The notes under the pieces are model-generated. The model had not been told where the DNA came from, made no database searches, and was given only the letters and a program-made list of their open reading frames with translations. A stretch of DNA of 42,285 nt from the IMG/VR virus record IMGVR_UViG_2778261056_000004, positions 1 through 42,285 of that record; one strand, written 5' to 3'. A program made the position numbers and the translations under genes. How positions within the stretch are numbered: the first letter of the stretch is position 1; every line of letters begins with the position of its first letter. The DNA is from a virus. Taxonomy: Duplodnaviria > Heunggongvirae > Uroviricota > Caudoviricetes. Below are positions 2,563 through 36,135 of the stretch, in pieces.

Positions 2563-4926
2563 TTATTTGAATTTACGTATCAGCAACTGAGTGATCCGCA
2601 CTGTTCTGGCAATGTTCCTCGTTGCGTAAACTCCGCCGATAATCCCACCGCCGCAGAACTTACCCTGCGTCCAGTCCCCCGTATAGTTCAGTACGGGGGT
2701 GTCTATGGTCTCCCACCCATCGTAGACCTTAACGGTCTGAGTCGTAGGCGAGGTTTTTTCGCAGCGGATGAGGAACTTTCTTGCCCTATCGGTGGGACTG
2801 TAAACATCGTCTATCCCGGTCTGGATCTGAGGATAGGGAGCGGAACCCTGGTATGGATAACGAAGCTGGAGCAGGTTGAATGTTTTCGACGTGGCATACA
2901 AAAGCAGGCAATTATCCTCCTGATAATTATCTGCAGCTCCAGAGTTTCGGTTGAGGGACTTCCCGCCAAAGAAAAGAAAACCCGTATCCGTGTCGAAGAA
3001 GCCCTCAACCAGAATTTCAACTTTGTCACCTACCTGTCCGATATCAGCACAGTTTGTGCCGTCAAACATCTCAGGATTCATGAACGCCACGCGGTTATTT
3101 GTGGCATCCGCTTCGAAACGGAAATCGAGAGGCCCGGTTTTCTCCAGCGCATTCACCTGAATATAATTTGGCGCGCCGTAGTTGTTCACGTAACCAAAGG
3201 TGTCCCTGGCTTTCCAGAATGGATTGAACTCAAACCAGCCTCCCCAGAATGCTCCAACTCCGCTCGTTGCTGGCGCGATCACCTGGATACGGTTAAGCCC
3301 GTATTTCAACTTGGTAAGGTAGAACGGACGGTCTGTCGCGTTGATGGCTGCTTCGTTCTCACCAGTGTCCGGAAGCTCTTTATCGTAATAGGCGGAAGAG
3401 TTACCAAGTGAAAAGACCTTCACGCGCGGCAGCTGGTCGGCTGCATATGCAGATCCAATATTGCTGTTGCCAAAATTGCGGTATATCAGGGAATCCTGAT
3501 TACCCTCGCTCCACACGAAGAAGTCAAAGATAACCTCGCTCGCCACATAGTCTGCGGCCTGGATGTACCAGATCCGCGGGAACCGCGAGTATTTATATCC
3601 CTCTGACCCCGTATCAGGAACCCAGCTGGAATTGTAGTCCTTCGAATATCGCATCCGGCTGTCCATCCAGCAGATACGCTCAATATCCGTACCGTAGCAG
3701 CGAAGAATGTCAGGCATAAACGACTGAGCGATAAAGGACGCTTTCATCGCATGACCAACGTCCCCCCAGTGCAGACCGTCAGGCTGGAGTTCATACTGGT
3801 TGGAGTAATCGCTGTTTTTGGACATCCATGTTTTTTGCATGAAGTCCTGATCGATAATGGACACCCCCAGCACCTCCGCCATGTATTTTTTCGCGGCATC
3901 GATCTGGGCTGCCGCTTCTTCATTGTCACGCCCGGAAGTACCTGAGTTCCAGCCGTTGTAGGAGCGCCAGTTTGCATCGCAGGTCGTGAGTACGGGTGTG
4001 GCGCCGGCTGCGATAACCTTCTTCATGACCTCGATTGTTTGCGCGATATGCTCGGTGATTTTATTTCCTGCATCTGTAATATCATTCAGCCCGAAGCTGA
4101 TGAGCACGATATCCGGGTTAGAAGGAATGTAGGGGTTTTGCAGGACGATTTTATCAAAGTAATAATTTACCCAGCCGTTCTGCATTTGCTGGCCGGAATA
4201 CCCGGCGTTATAAACGCTGATGTTGTTGTTGCGATGGTATTGCCGAAGAATTGTTTGCAGTCTGGCACACCATGCATTGGGCGCTTCTGCGTTATGGTCA
4301 CTGTTGGCCAGAGGTGCAGTGGCCCACGGGAAGCCAGTTACAGGCGTGGTGGGGTTTGCCGTCCACCCCGTGGAGCCAGTACCATCCCCGGTCGAATCGG
4401 CAATACTGGTAATAATAACCGTCTCTCCGGCATGCATTTTTGCGGCCCAGTAATCCAGGGTTTTAATATGTCCCTGAAATAATGGTGCCGCGGCGCTGAG
4501 AATTAACTGCCGAAGAGAGGCATCTCCTACGGAAACAAAATGGGAAGAGTCAGTTGCATCCCACGAGGATTTTGTTGTCCCGGCTGTTTTATAAGGTGGT
4601 TTGGTACCAGCAGATAACTTATAGAATTCACCGTCATAACGAATCAGTTCGTTGTATTCAGAAACAGTAATAAGACCGTCTTCATAATCTCCAATTACGT
4701 CATAGCCCGCATTTTCAATAAAGGTGCGAAATCGCGTCTCCTGATCAGCAATCTGATTATTGAAGTCATATTCCATTCCACTCCACGATTTACGTATCCG
4801 ACCCAGCCTGTCGGTCCATGTTTTGTTGGTAATTCCATTTACCGCCTGGTCCAGGTTCTGAGCGTTATCACGTAAATCGCGTGGGTCAGTTGAATCCAGC
4901 GGGTTAAGAGTGTTGTATGGTGCCAT
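2563..4926 (-). CDS. tail fiber/tailspike with central SGNH (GDSL-type) esterase domain, 787 aa
   Basis: ATG at 4926 follows GGAG. The N-terminus MAPYNTLNPLDSTDPRDLRDNAQNLDQAVNG resembles a conserved tail-fiber anchor. SGNH blocks are present: IADSTGDG (I), YNAGYSGQQ (II), FGLNDI (III) and DGLHW (V). Confidence 0.75.
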   Translation of the reverse strand: MAPYNTLNPLDSTDPRDLRDNAQNLDQAVNGITNKTWTDRLGRIRKSWSGMEYDFNNQIADQETRFRTFIENAGYDVIGDYEDGLITVSEYNELIRYDGEFYKLSAGTKPPYKTAGTTKSSWDATDSSHFVSVGDASLRQLILSAAAPLFQGHIKTLDYWAAKMHAGETVIITSIADSTGDGTGSTGWTANPTTPVTGFPWATAPLANSDHNAEAPNAWCARLQTILRQYHRNNNISVYNAGYSGQQMQNGWVNYYFDKIVLQNPYIPSNPDIVLISFGLNDITDAGNKITEHIAQTIEVMKKVIAAGATPVLTTCDANWRSYNGWNSGTSGRDNEEAAAQIDAAKKYMAEVLGVSIIDQDFMQKTWMSKNSDYSNQYELQPDGLHWGDVGHAMKASFIAQSFMPDILRCYGTDIERICWMDSRMRYSKDYNSSWVPDTGSEGYKYSRFPRIWYIQAADYVASEVIFDFFVWSEGNQDSLIYRNFGNSNIGSAYAADQLPRVKVFSLGNSSAYYDKELPDTGENEAAINATDRPFYLTKLKYGLNRIQVIAPATSGVGAFWGGWFEFNPFWKARDTFGYVNNYGAPNYIQVNALEKTGPLDFRFEADATNNRVAFMNPEMFDGTNCADIGQVGDKVEILVEGFFDTDTGFLFFGGKSLNRNSGAADNYQEDNCLLLYATSKTFNLLQLRYPYQGSAPYPQIQTGIDDVYSPTDRARKFLIRCEKTSPTTQTVKVYDGWETIDTPVLNYTGDWTQGKFCGGGIIGGVYATRNIARTVRITQLLIRKFK

Positions 4927-4942
4927 TGTATTTCTCCAGCAT

Positions 4943-4965
4943 AAAAAAACCCGCCGGAGCGGGTT
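4943..4965 (-). terminator. intrinsic terminator between the J-like gene and the tail fiber gene
   Basis: The minus strand reads AACCCGC-UCCG-GCGGG followed by U7. Confidence 0.7.
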
Positions 4966-4983
4966 ATGCAATTAAGTGTGTTT

Positions 4984-33453: not shown

Positions 33454-33625
33454 AAGCGTTTCGCCTTCCTGTAGTAAACCCCCACAATTGCGACCGCCCG
33501 ACTGTGGTTACATGGCACCCAGCGGTTTGCTATTCTGCGTTCATACCGAAACAACGGAGCGCCCGGTACCGGGATCATCCTGAGTTGCGGTAAACGGTTA
33601 AAAGCCGTTAAACTGGTCATGCGGA

Positions 33626-34196: not shown

Positions 34197-34412
34197 TTAT
34201 TTCTGATCGTTAGGCGCTGTATTCTTGCCATAACGTTCTGGGTTGAATTCCAGTTCACCAGCAGTTCGATACGCAGCTTCAGCAGCTCGTCCTTTAGGGA
34301 TTAAGCGTCCGGGGCGATTACGCCACTGGTAAACGGCCTCACTGGTGATGCCAAAAAATTCGGCAACTTTCTCAGTGCTGCCGAAATGTTGTTCAATCTC
34401 GTCGGTTGTCAT
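34197..34412 (-). CDS. cro: Cro-like HTH repressor (YdaS/Cro family), 71 aa
   Basis: FGSTEKVAEFFGITSEAVYQW forms an HTH. It is divergent from cI, with an AAGGAGG RBS, and is transcribed from the PR candidate. Confidence 0.75.
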   Translation of the reverse strand: MTTDEIEQHFGSTEKVAEFFGITSEAVYQWRNRPGRLIPKGRAAEAAYRTAGELEFNPERYGKNTAPNDQK

Positions 34413-34422
34413 GAAGCCTCCT

Positions 34423-34500
34423 TAGCTAAGTTTGGTTAGATATTAATAACCAATCTAACTTTGGTCAATAAAAACTAAGATTACTTAGTCTTTTTTAAAT
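34423..34500. promoter_or_regulatory. OR operator/promoter region (PR and PRM)
   Basis: PR on the minus strand is TTGACC (34467-34462)-17 nt-TAATAT (34444-34439). Three operator-like sites carry CTAAG/CTTAG half sites: AGCTAAGTTTGGTTAGAT, ACCAATCTAACTTTGGT and ACTAAGATTACTTAGT. cI has almost no leader or SD. Confidence 0.65.
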
Positions 34501-34511
34501 TTGGTGCTTTC

Positions 34512-35138
34512 ATGGAAACAGTTGGTCAGCGCATTAAAGCCCTACGCAGGGTTACAAAAACCTCTCAAAAAGAACTGGGTAAGTTCTGCGGAGTGAGTGA
34601 CGTAGCGGTGGGTTATTGGGAAAAGGATGTGAATATCCCAAACGGAGAATCGCTGGTTAAGCTGGCTAAATTCTTCAATACATCAATAGATTACATTCTT
34701 TACGGCACTGAATTTGAAGGGACCCTCATAACTAAAATGAGGCGTGTGCCCGTGATTTCTTGGGTTCAAGCTGGGCAGTTTACGGAATGTAAGGCCGCTG
34801 ATTTATTCAGTGATGTCGATAAATGGGTTGAAACCTCACTACGTATTGGGGATAGCTCGTTCGCTTTAGAGGTCAAAGGGGATTCAATGACCAATCCAAA
34901 TGGCCTCCCAACAATTCCTGAAGGGGCAACCGTTATTGTCGATCCAGATGCCGAACCCCTTCATGGCAAGATTGTTGTTGCGCGTATTGATGGCACTAAC
35001 GAAGCGACTGTTAAAAAACTGGTCATTGATGGCCCACAAAAATTTTTAGTCCCACTAAATCCTCGCTACCCCAACATCCCGATCAATGGTAACTGCCTCA
35101 TTATTGGAGTAGTTAAAGGCGTTCAATACGAACTCTAA
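34512..35138 (+). CDS. cI: CI-type prophage repressor, HTH_XRE plus S24 autopeptidase domain
   Basis: The N-terminal HTH is QKELGKFCGVSDVAVGYWE. The C-terminal part has GDSM (Ser) and ATVKKL (Lys), as in LexA and lambda CI. Confidence 0.85.
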   Translation: METVGQRIKALRRVTKTSQKELGKFCGVSDVAVGYWEKDVNIPNGESLVKLAKFFNTSIDYILYGTEFEGTLITKMRRVPVISWVQAGQFTECKAADLFSDVDKWVETSLRIGDSSFALEVKGDSMTNPNGLPTIPEGATVIVDPDAEPLHGKIVVARIDGTNEATVKKLVIDGPQKFLVPLNPRYPNIPINGNCLIIGVVKGVQYEL

Positions 35139-35167
35139 TCCCTTTCCGCTCTTCCTCTAAGCATCAA

Positions 35168-35220
35168 GCTAAGTTTAGTTTGATGTTTCGCTTGACCAAC
35201 AAACTAAGTTAAGTTAGATT
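35168..35220 (+). promoter_or_regulatory. OL operators and PL promoter
   Basis: TTGACC (35192-35197)-17 nt-TAGATT (35215-35220). Operator-like AGCTAAGTTTAGTTTGAT lies upstream and AAACTAAGTTAAGTTAGAT lies between the -35 and -10. Both share the motif seen at OR. Confidence 0.6.
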
Positions 35221-35294
35221 TTTTCTGTCGACACCAAACCACCGCGCCTGATGTGGTTAAAAGCAGGCCAAAGCAATAAGAAGTGATCCCTGTT

Positions 35295-35336
35295 CTGGCT
35301 GCTCACTTTCCCCTGAGGGTGACAGCCAGCTTTTTA
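35295..35336 (+). terminator. intrinsic terminator 1 in the PL leader
   Basis: CTGGCTG(c)TCAC...GTGACAGCCAG followed by CTTTTT. Confidence 0.6.
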
Positions 35337-35571
35337 AGGGCACAACGTGAAAGCGCACTCCTTCTCTCTTTCACTGCGGGGGCAGGTTTGTTACCGAAGT
35401 AGTGCGCTTCCAGTTGTGGTAATGCGGCTCTGCGCACGTGACGAGGCCAACAAGTTTTTATTTCAACATTTGAAATGAATACGTTTCTTGAGGTGTAGCG
35501 TCGCCGGTTCTGGCCGGTCCGGCAGGTGGAGGCACCACCGCCACAACAAAATCATTGCTGTGTGTAGTCTT

Positions 35572-35600
35572 TGCCCATCACATCGATGGGCACCTTTTTT
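35572..35600 (+). terminator. intrinsic terminator 2 in the PL leader
   Basis: TGCCCATC-ACATC-GATGGGCA followed by CCTTTTTT. Confidence 0.7.
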
Positions 35601-35763
35601 ACACAAGAGACAAGGGCATCACCGGGCGACGGGCTCATTCCCCAATCCACCCGGGCGCTATGGAAATGGACCTCCTACCCATAGCCGAAGCGCAGGTGCC
35701 CTTTTCTGTTGTGTATGGAGAAGTTCCACTGGCGGTGGCAGCCGCCTCACAGAGGGTTAAACC

Positions 35764-36135
35764 ATGAGTAATGACCGCATGACCGTAGTGCCCGATTTCC
35801 TGGGCGAACTGGATGCCGGCGTGTTCATGAACAAGATCGCGGCAGCTTTAAACACTACCGCGCTTGGCGTTCTGAACAACGGTACCAAAGGCAAAGTAGT
35901 CCTCACCTTTGATATTGAGCGTATGGGTAACTCCGTCGAAGAGAAGCGCGTCAAGATCAAGCACAAGCTGAACTACGTCACCCCAACCCCGCGCGGTAAA
36001 GCCTCCGAAGAAGACACCACCGAAACACCAATGTGGGTTAACAAAGGAGGCAAGCTGACCATACTGCAGGAAGATCAGGGGCAGCTGTTCGGGATCAACG
36101 GCGGCGTTGACGGAAAGCTTAAAGCGGCACAGTGA
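35764..36135 (+). CDS. hypothetical early protein, 123 aa (YfdP-like by position)
   Basis: AGAGGG RBS precedes the start. First ORF of the PL operon, directly upstream of the DUF2303 gene as in CPS-53. Confidence 0.5.
   Translation: MSNDRMTVVPDFLGELDAGVFMNKIAAALNTTALGVLNNGTKGKVVLTFDIERMGNSVEEKRVKIKHKLNYVTPTPRGKASEEDTTETPMWVNKGGKLTILQEDQGQLFGINGGVDGKLKAAQ

Follow-up and report, generated by a model that had tools for sequence, protein, structure and literature searches.

A modular, apparently non-coding leader with an RprA-like 3' end downstream of the early-left promoter of a lambdoid phage

In the genome of a lambdoid temperate phage (Caudoviricetes; IMG/VR record IMGVR_UViG_2778261056_000004, of which positions 1 to 42,285, the whole stretch analysed, are referred to here as the window), the early-left promoter PL is separated from the first early-left gene by a leader of about 540 nucleotides (positions 35223-35763) that contains, at its second terminator, a near-copy of the processed form of RprA, a core enterobacterial small RNA (sRNA). 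Judged from sequence comparison, this leader is not a gene and is a chain of portable RNA modules common to many lambdoid phages. The explanation that we favour, with somewhat better than even confidence, is that it is a modular non-coding RNA cassette from which PL would yield an RprA-mimicking, probably Hfq-type sRNA while the terminators throttle the early-left operon.

The anatomy of the leader, the conservation of its modules as RNA structure, its homology to RprA and its recurrent position after cI and PL were computed; the comparison set comprised the phages LLS, Flotzy, Eeyore, SfV and phiNP, Klebsiella phages, E. coli prophages and about 200 IMG/VR loci. An earlier note on this DNA, made from the letters alone, had described a non-coding PL leader with two or three terminators. 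The non-coding leader and two terminators are borne out, whereas the specific mechanisms suggested in that note mostly are not. Among the options named there, the best fit is that of a stable non-coding RNA transcribed from PL, given the near-copy of processed RprA with an sRNA-type 3' end, and the homologous leaders, in which a check for covariation had been suggested, preserve the modules as RNA structure with compensatory changes.

The RprA-like 3' end and its spread among phages

The element begins with AUUGCUGUGUGUAGUCUUUGCCCAUC, a run of 26 consecutive bases identical to E. coli K-12 RprA that starts at the first base of processed RprA, and in the alignment the same terminator stem (GCCCAUC/GAUGGGC) and U-run follow. 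The conserved 3' module of RprA, namely AUUGCUGUGUGUAGUCUUUGCC (26 of 26 bases identical), the terminator hairpin and six U residues, is present, and the Rfam model of RprA (RF00034) matches positions 35465-35601 over the full model (model positions 1-108; E 1.5e-4). Eeyore and an unrelated prophage of E. coli strain 44 give similar sub-threshold matches to RprA at the corresponding position, and the 3' 50 nucleotides (nt) of the element match annotated rprA in 5420 of the 5426 complete E. coli genomes. The motif AUCCCCUGAGU, a piece of RprA's central region, is found ahead of the core only in other phages (loci L042 and L117), and some phages that carry putL keep this RprA motif before the core. 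In RprA, the 3' region serves as a second seed, for ricI. Processed RprA, which consists of the last 47 nt of RprA and coexists with the full-length form (Brosse et al., PMC9262595), is sufficient to repress narP via the first 50 nt of the mRNA, probably indirectly (PMC9262595), and processing of RprA to a shorter form by RNase E has also been described (PMC6202311). Identity of the phage element with the enteropathogenic E. coli small RNA PasB was also considered and rejected, the published PasB probe sequence being unrelated.

The element ends in the terminator T2 (stem 35572-35592, U6 at 35595-35600), for which the terminator scan and folding gave a free energy of -13.7 kcal/mol and a z score of -5.3; it has the stem of the RprA terminator, which is known to work. 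The earlier note had placed intrinsic terminators at 35572-35600 and, closer to the promoter, at 35295-35336 (T1), and both stand: T1 and T2 are GC-rich hairpins with U-runs.

More than 100 viral contigs contain the 14-nt core UGCUGUGUGUAGUC together with a variable terminator, usually with a cI-like gene upstream. Among the IMG/VR matches listed, to which the following counts of the core refer, at least 111 of 120 instances have the core followed by a hairpin and a T-run, and 66 distinct segments from core to T-run were seen, many of them with unrelated hairpin stems. In 57 of the 90 testable loci there is a cI-like gene on the same strand no more than 1.5 kb upstream, and in 28 of 101 a yfdP-like gene begins within 300 nt downstream. 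In an independent sample drawn by element A, the most promoter-proximal module of the leader, the core was present within 1.3 kb downstream in 54 of 115 cases (50 exact, four with one or two mismatches), and here, too, the terminators vary while most cores stay exact. Such a combination of an exact core with differing terminators is the pattern expected of a conserved seed on a replaceable terminator.

Moreover, the parts that precede the core are interchangeable and include A alone, H2 alone, the STnc100-like domain, hairpins with GAAAGAC loops and a small open reading frame (ORF); the minimal versions, about 100-160 nt and thus of small-RNA size, consist of A or H2, a linker, the core and a terminator. 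With its invariant and predictedly single-stranded core, its replaceable terminator and its replaceable structured 5' domains, the family has the look of trans-acting Hfq-type sRNAs.

The hairpins with GAAAGAC loops occur in numbers of up to six or more (CCGG-GAAAGA-CCGG, GCGG-GAAAGA-CCGC) on the flanks of the RprA-like terminator in the prophage of E. coli strain 44 (L005 1600-2330), and also in L044, L063, L065, L069 and L085; in appearance they recall boxB sites, to which an RNA-binding protein would bind.

The other modules of the leader and their setting

The modules of the leader and the features that adjoin it are collected in Table 1. Folding of the whole leader gave a z score of -4.7 relative to shuffled sequences, in agreement with its description as highly structured in the earlier note; its description as GC-rich holds only relative to cI (44.7% G+C) and not relative to the window, the values being 53.8% for the leader and 52.9% for the window.

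Table 1. Positions of the leader modules and adjoining features in the window
Feature	Position	Strand	Description
cro-like gene	34197-34412	-	faces the repressor gene, as does a cII-like gene
S24/HTH repressor (cI-like) gene	34512-35138	+	family match
OL/PL	35162-35224	+	promoter scan: TTGACC (35192-35197), 17-nt spacer, TAGATT (35215-35220), inside operator-like repeats
Element A, H-type pseudoknot	35237-35268	+	stem 1 AACCAC (35237-42)/GUGGUU (35253-58); stem 2 GCCUG (35246-50)/CAGGC (35264-68); loop 3 AAAAG
Linker and T1	35269-35335	+	single-stranded 35269-35294 (26 nt); stem CUGGCUG..CAGCCAG 35295-35329, then CUUUUU
Hairpin H2	35341-35418	+	closed by CACAAC/GUUGUG; copy 1 (GCGCAC) paired with copy 2 (GTGCGC)
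STnc100-5'-related domain	35413-35553	+	GUUGUGGUAAUGCGGCUCUGCGCACG (contains GCGCAC copy 3), AT-rich hairpin, GC hairpins, AGGCA-loop hairpin, (G)CCACAAC
Copy of processed RprA	35554-35600 (47 nt)	+	AUUGCUGUGUGUAGUCUUUGCCCAUC, 14-nt core 35556-35569, T2, U6
Module C	35601-35714	+	three-way: P1, 18 bp (35601-18/35697-35714); P2, CCGGG..CCCGG with inner GGG/CCC hairpin; P3, variable hairpin
yfdP 5' region	35715-35766	+	conserved GGAGAA; hairpin GGCGG-UGGCAG-CCGCC 35731-46; ribosome-binding site AGAGGG 35751-56; ATG 35764

Element A was found upstream of the core, on the same strand, in 74 of 129 core-carrying loci and on the opposite strand in none of the 129, again among the matches listed. In one family of variants, stem 2 reads (G)CCCGG/CCGGG(C), with both strands altered, a covariation that comes from this single family and from a listing that took perfectly paired candidates only and so is biased towards pairing. 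The hairpin of T1 (-21.5 kcal/mol, z -4.3) is unchanged in LLS, Flotzy and Eeyore, and in L145 it reads CUGGCGG..CCGCCAG, again with both strands altered.

Hairpin H2 (-29.4 kcal/mol, z -3.2) is represented by 15 distinct variants of 76-134 nt, in all of which the closing helix is kept, and its inner stem covaries (AAGCGCAC/GUGCGCUU, GAGAGCA/UGCUCUC, AAGGCGCA/UGCGCCUC). The three copies of a GCGCAC/GTGCGC hexamer to which the earlier note drew attention are present (GCGCAC at 35353-35358, one base off the position given there, GTGCGC at 35402-35407 and GCGCAC at 35432-35437), but the attenuator that was built on them, in which the middle copy pairs with either neighbour, had to be rejected: copies 1 and 2 covary as H2 and copy 3 does not, as exemplified by Eeyore, where copies 1 and 2 change jointly (GAGAGCA/UGCUCUC) and copy 3 stays GCGCAC. 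A different ambiguity concerns GUUGUGG, which can pair backwards, closing H2, or forwards with CCACAAC; both partners are invariant, so covariation cannot choose between the two pairings. The long versions of H2 contain hairpins that resemble the T arm of tRNA (e.g. CUGGUUCGAUUCCAG and GUCCGUUCGAUUCGGAC; L004 2180-2260, L008, L127 and L044), a resemblance that hints at tertiary-structure modules.

The domain between H2 and the RprA-like end has a relative in the 5' part of STnc100. It aligns with an SfV-type element at its start (GUUGUGGUAAUGCGGCUC..), in the hairpin with the AGGCA loop and in the CCACAAC strand that closes it, and the stem of the AGGCA hairpin compensates (GGUGG/CCACC in the window, CCGGG/CCCGG in the SfV type). 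This hairpin, GGUGG-AGGCA-CCACC at 35525-39, is followed by (G)CCACAAC at 35540-47, which is able to pair with GUUGUGG(U) at 35413-20; RNAalifold chooses this long-range helix, itself invariant, in 12 of 12 sequences. The AT-rich hairpin of the domain resembles the first hairpin of RprA. By alignment, three features of the domain recur in STnc100/PasD, namely, the motif GUGGUGAAU.., the hairpin with its AGGCA loop and the CACCAC closing strand; against the Rfam model of STnc100 (RF02076; gathering score 47), the sister element of the SfV type scores 39.5 bits, and the element of the window gives no match at E values up to 10. A piece homologous to 35401-35549 is present in the Klebsiella phage SopranoGao (L009 2501-2629) and in other Lastavirus genomes (61 kb), near the genome end past the lysis genes, which means that this module also travels outside the PL context.

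Downstream of T2, module C (z -4.8) is conserved in its pairing: over 12 variants RNAalifold finds 31 pairs, nine of them with compensatory double changes, and P1 is intact in all 12. The U-rich stretch that had been taken for the tail of a third terminator at about 35650-35712 is the 3' arm (35697-35714) of this 18-bp helix, which closes a conserved domain, and the third terminator is reinterpreted accordingly. A 62-nt segment of module C (35596-35657) is present in 2498 of the 5426 complete E. coli genomes (46%), mostly unannotated or under 'hypothetical protein' calls, and no Rfam match for the module was found.

With respect to coding potential, the leader contains four ORFs, at 35488-35760 (TTG start, 90 amino acids), 35555-35767 (TTG start, 70 amino acids), 35283-35402 and 35347-35478, none of which has a Pfam or PHROG family; the TTG-start ORFs have no ribosome-binding site and pass through T2. 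Homologous modules differ in length by numbers that are not multiples of three (H2 as above; module C 97-124 nt). The statement of the earlier note that there is no credible ORF between PL and the first early-left gene is supported by both observations, and so are two others: a family scan of 13 ORFs, from the leader and the early genes that flank it, gave no match to N or Nun, and no boxA with three or fewer mismatches was found within 35223-35763.

As for the setting, PL is a sigma-70-like promoter by the promoter scan (35192-35220), and the repeats AGCTAAGTTTAGTTTGAT and AACTAAGTTAAGTTAGAT are common to OL and to the operator region on the cro side (34424-34495). The presence of a promoter-like site among operator repeats that are also found on the cro side indicates a genuine repressor-controlled PL, from which transcription probably starts near 35227. 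As the promoter scan found no second promoter-like site within the leader, its transcription must come from PL or from read-through out of cI. In the window there is no terminator between the stop codon of cI (35138) and PL, although Flotzy, SfV and phiNP have one; T1 may therefore also end the cI message in the lysogen. A boxA-like sequence, CCGCUCUUCCUCUAA, lies at 35139-35191, upstream of the -35 hexamer of PL and hence within the cI transcript.

The first family-supported gene with an ATG start after the leader is yfdP-like (35764-36135, PHROG 204), and a DUF2303/yfdQ-like gene comes next. The layout is the same in phage LLS, which plates on E. coli K-12 and has 95% identity over the leader stretch; in its genome, xis, int and an annotated tmRNA-type phage attachment site (attP) lie about 4-5 kb downstream on the same strand, and a Q-type antiterminator serves the late genes.

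On the PR side, about 170 nt separate the cII-like gene from a DUF4222 gene (33454-33625, minus strand). This gap contains UUUAACGGC...CUCAGGAUGAUCCCGG; its fold is no better than that of shuffled sequences (z -0.7) and the covariance model of put RNAs described below finds no match in it. LLS annotates a 108-amino-acid ORF over this gap (PHROG 1170, unknown function), overlapping the DUF4222 gene in another frame. Elsewhere in the window, a group II intron lies on the minus strand at 636-2453, with an Rfam match to domains D1-D4 at 2228-2453 (186.6 bits) and an intron ORF at 636-2123 (495 amino acids) that contains a reverse-transcriptase domain; it adjoins a gene for an 802-amino-acid protein with a GDSL lipase domain (2563-4971, minus strand).

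Proposed function and alternative readings

In the scheme that we favour, PL would transcribe A when the repressor is lifted, and T1 would halt most polymerases, with an RNA of about 110 nt as the product. The polymerases that get past it would go on to make H2 and the STnc100-like domain before they stop at T2; the stops are predicted from canonical terminator features and, in the case of T2, from a stem that is known to work in RprA. The T2-ended RNA would carry the 47-nt near-copy of processed RprA, released either directly or through an RNase E cut in the AU-rich linker. In its 3' module, the conserved core, single-stranded, comes before a GC hairpin and a U-tail, an arrangement that is usual for Hfq-binding sRNAs. 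Presumably, this RNA acts in trans on the targets of the RprA 3' fragment (the published case is narP in E. coli), probably with Hfq, and the phage would thereby impose part of the RprA response independently of Rcs and Cpx. T1 and T2 would hold the accessory early-left operon (yfdP, yfdQ ... xis, int) low, and module C, a separately conserved structured 5' untranslated region, would be present only on read-through transcripts. Expression, processing, Hfq binding, targets and terminator efficiencies are all predictions from sequence in this scheme; the missing coding signal and the lengths that vary out of frame support its premise, that the leader is a non-coding RNA.

Several observations weigh against this scheme. 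The match to the RprA model, at 46.5 bits, falls below the gathering score of 70, and the centre of RprA that pairs with rpoS and narP (AAAUCCCCUGAGUGAAACAACGAAUU) is replaced in the window by GC hairpins (35490-35547, about 50 nt). The core has no known direct target even in RprA, no convincing pairing was found for processed RprA itself (PMC9262595), and a search of the phage genome for a site complementary to the 14-nt core gave nothing better than chance. The 2-nt CC spacer that precedes the U-run of T2 makes the efficiency of this terminator uncertain. The full element of the window type is rare, with five occurrences in the 5426 complete E. coli genomes, and our literature search returned no paper that describes an RprA-like phage RNA and none with the core outside RprA itself.

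The best placed of the competing explanations, which we nevertheless consider unlikely, is that the cassette serves mainly in cis for antitermination: A, alone or with H2, would stay on RNA polymerase in the manner of HK022 put and take it past T1, T2 and later terminators, and the RprA-like 3' end would be a by-product of unmodified polymerases. The position of A would suit such a role. It starts about 10 nt past the probable PL start, lies 27 nt before T1 and is the sole element upstream of T1, and it marks precisely where the conserved cassette, at its 5' edge, meets at least six different immunity regions. In sister leaders, the PL-proximal slot before the same RprA-like terminator is filled by a true HK022-type putL (L042, L045 and L117) or by a boxA, CGCUCUUUAACAA (L061 and L090). 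A also heads leaders that lack the 14-mer and leaders that run straight into genes, and the location of xis and int at the far end of the LLS operon implies that excision needs some read-through. The architecture of A may fit as well. In the putL 5' domain on RNA polymerase, A3-G7 pairs with C15-U19, U21-C25 forms the triplex strand and C10-G14/C30-G34 the lower stem (PMC9378689), and A has the same a-b-a'-b' strand order, two stems of about 5 bp and an A-rich third strand. Together with the slot that A occupies, this putL-like topology is a lead towards a possible RNA-based antitermination.

Against this stands the failure of the put comparison, by which membership of the HK022 put family, the likeness suggested in the earlier note, is not supported. 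A covariance model of six put RNAs, which gives HK022 putL 96 bits and putR 56 bits, is empty in the leader and in those of LLS, Eeyore, Flotzy, SfV and phiNP; its best match in the window (E 0.79, at 1393-1474) lies outside the early region, and it recovers the HK022 controls only, while blastn with putL finds the known put phages and none of these. In addition, no equivalent of stem II of put is evident in A, which has neither the CGAACGGC nor the GGAUGA motif, there is no second A-like pseudoknot in the window that could be the PR-side copy, and the covariation of stem 2 is confined to one variant family. Finally, in many phages a terminator follows A after 15-30 nt, which makes a unit of small-RNA size and fits an sRNA 5' scaffold better. 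In view of the apparent lack of stem II, the lack of a PR-side copy and the sRNA-sized units that A forms, a role of A as 5' scaffold of PL-proximal sRNAs is ranked above a role as antiterminator, its main rival.

In Flotzy (L011 1420-1500), SfV (L003 1650-1745), phiNP (L004 1795-1870) and Eeyore, PL and A are separated by a further conserved element (..CCCACGAAGUAGCCGCC..GGAUGAUUCG) about 70 nt long. It consists of ACAGGCAGGAcGCCCACGAAGUAGCCGCC, a hairpin with a covarying stem (CCUGG/CCAGG, CCGG/CCGG, CCCGG/CCGGG) and, last, GAUGAUUCG. The window does not have this element and the put model does not pick it up; we regard it as a candidate for the antitermination element of these sister phages.

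A bolder version, less likely again, would unite the two functions. A would be the founder of a second class of put-like, factor-independent antiterminators, a minimal triplex-type pseudoknot on RNA polymerase, which lambdoid phages without N have joined to a copy of processed RprA, so that a single 375-nt leader would reprogram the polymerase and release a host-mimicking sRNA. The core gene rprA might also descend from a phage leader RNA of this kind, or the descent might run the other way.

It is improbable, in our estimate, that the terminators are simple insulators or attenuators, which end the cI transcript and damp PL, and that the remainder is mosaic filler, carried along at a recombination hot spot and devoid of any RNA function in trans. 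A mosaic build is indeed plain to see, the modules of the leader being shuffled among phages, and with no terminator between cI and PL, T1 would end the cI message too; however, filler would preserve neither the pairing of four separate modules by compensatory changes nor an invariant 14-nt single-stranded core beside an often-swapped terminator.

We give even less credence to the view that the RprA-like end is a non-functional relic captured from host rprA, or that it belongs to an attachment site in which the 3' end of rprA is duplicated. The 26 identical bases and the terminator stem in common with E. coli RprA could mean a recent capture, but most phage copies match RprA in the core only and have unrelated terminators, which argues for selection on the core rather than for a single recent capture, and the position of the element after cI and PL is fixed. 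The attachment-site version was rejected, given that in the closely related LLS the annotated attP is at a tmRNA-like site beside int, about 4-5 kb downstream of the leader.

Least credible of all is a small protein encoded in the leader, for instance a novel antiterminator, for which one might cite the ORFs of 90 and 70 amino acids, the short coding sequences that automatic annotation places in the Flotzy and Eeyore leaders, and a possible 18-codon upstream ORF (AUG-GAG-AAG near 35715, with UAA 4 nt past the yfdP start), but which is contradicted by the TTG starts, the missing ribosome-binding sites and protein families, the passage of the ORFs through T2, the frame-breaking length differences among homologues and the replacement of the upstream ORF start by ACG in L008. 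In the segment that corresponds to this upstream ORF (35715-35772 of the window), SfV has GUG GAG AAA, so that, with ACG in L008, the start codon is not conserved.

If the scheme that we favour, of an RprA-mimicking sRNA released from the PL leader, is correct, the consequences would be of some interest. Phage sRNAs that tap host networks are known, but we found no earlier description of a phage that carries a copy of a core enterobacterial sRNA's active 3' fragment. The copy sits at the end of an early-left leader, in more than 100 viral contigs with put-type, nut-type and other leaders, and would amount to a phage switch that imposes part of the RprA output, that is, an envelope-stress response, at induction, without Rcs or Cpx signalling. 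It would also be a natural experiment on processed RprA, itself poorly understood. Moreover, the leader contributes three further structured motifs that are absent from Rfam 15, namely, pseudoknot A, hairpin H2 and module C, and it frames the question of how lambdoid phages without N express xis and int past promoter-proximal terminators.

Comparison with known systems

Each of the known systems that the leader brings to mind matches it in part. The leader has the genomic slot of lambda nutL/N, in which a PL leader and then terminators precede the early-left genes, but it differs in having no boxA and no N-like protein, and its first gene, yfdP-like, belongs to a family of unknown function. 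To HK022 put it is likened by the location of A, right after PL and before terminators, as well as by the topology of A; the differences are the lack of a match to the covariance model, the apparent lack of stem II, the missing CGAACGGC and GGAUGA motifs and the missing PR-side copy.

STnc100 and PasD share with the leader a 5' motif (GUGGUGAAUGCGGCUC), an AGGCA-loop hairpin with a compensating stem and a CACCAC closing strand, followed by a seed region and a terminator, and they, too, are prophage RNAs with a modular build and no known function (Zhu, Shabalina and Storz preprint, 2026). They differ in location, which is near Q and the late genes or else downstream of stx and not after PL, and in their 3' seed, which is unlike the RprA core.

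Comparable in general design are other prophage sRNAs that act on host networks, namely, DicF, the anti-sRNAs AgvB/AsxR, StxS and lambda PreS, which are phage-borne, terminator-ended, Hfq-type RNAs from early or late leaders. StxS in particular arises by early termination of a transcript from a phage promoter. These prophage sRNAs mimic targets, in the case of the anti-sRNAs, or have unrelated seeds, whereas here the phage appears to copy the 3' fragment of a core sRNA.

RprA itself is transcribed from its own promoter, between ydiK and ydiL, whereas the element of the window ends a 375-nt PL leader in the order cI, PL, leader, yfdP, with no Rcs- or Cpx-type control evident. The element lies below or outside the thresholds of the RprA, STnc100 and put families and, by these thresholds, is a member of none of them. 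On the basis of the comparisons above, it is best filed as a putative phage-encoded sRNA that copies the active 3' fragment of a host sRNA inside a modular structured leader.

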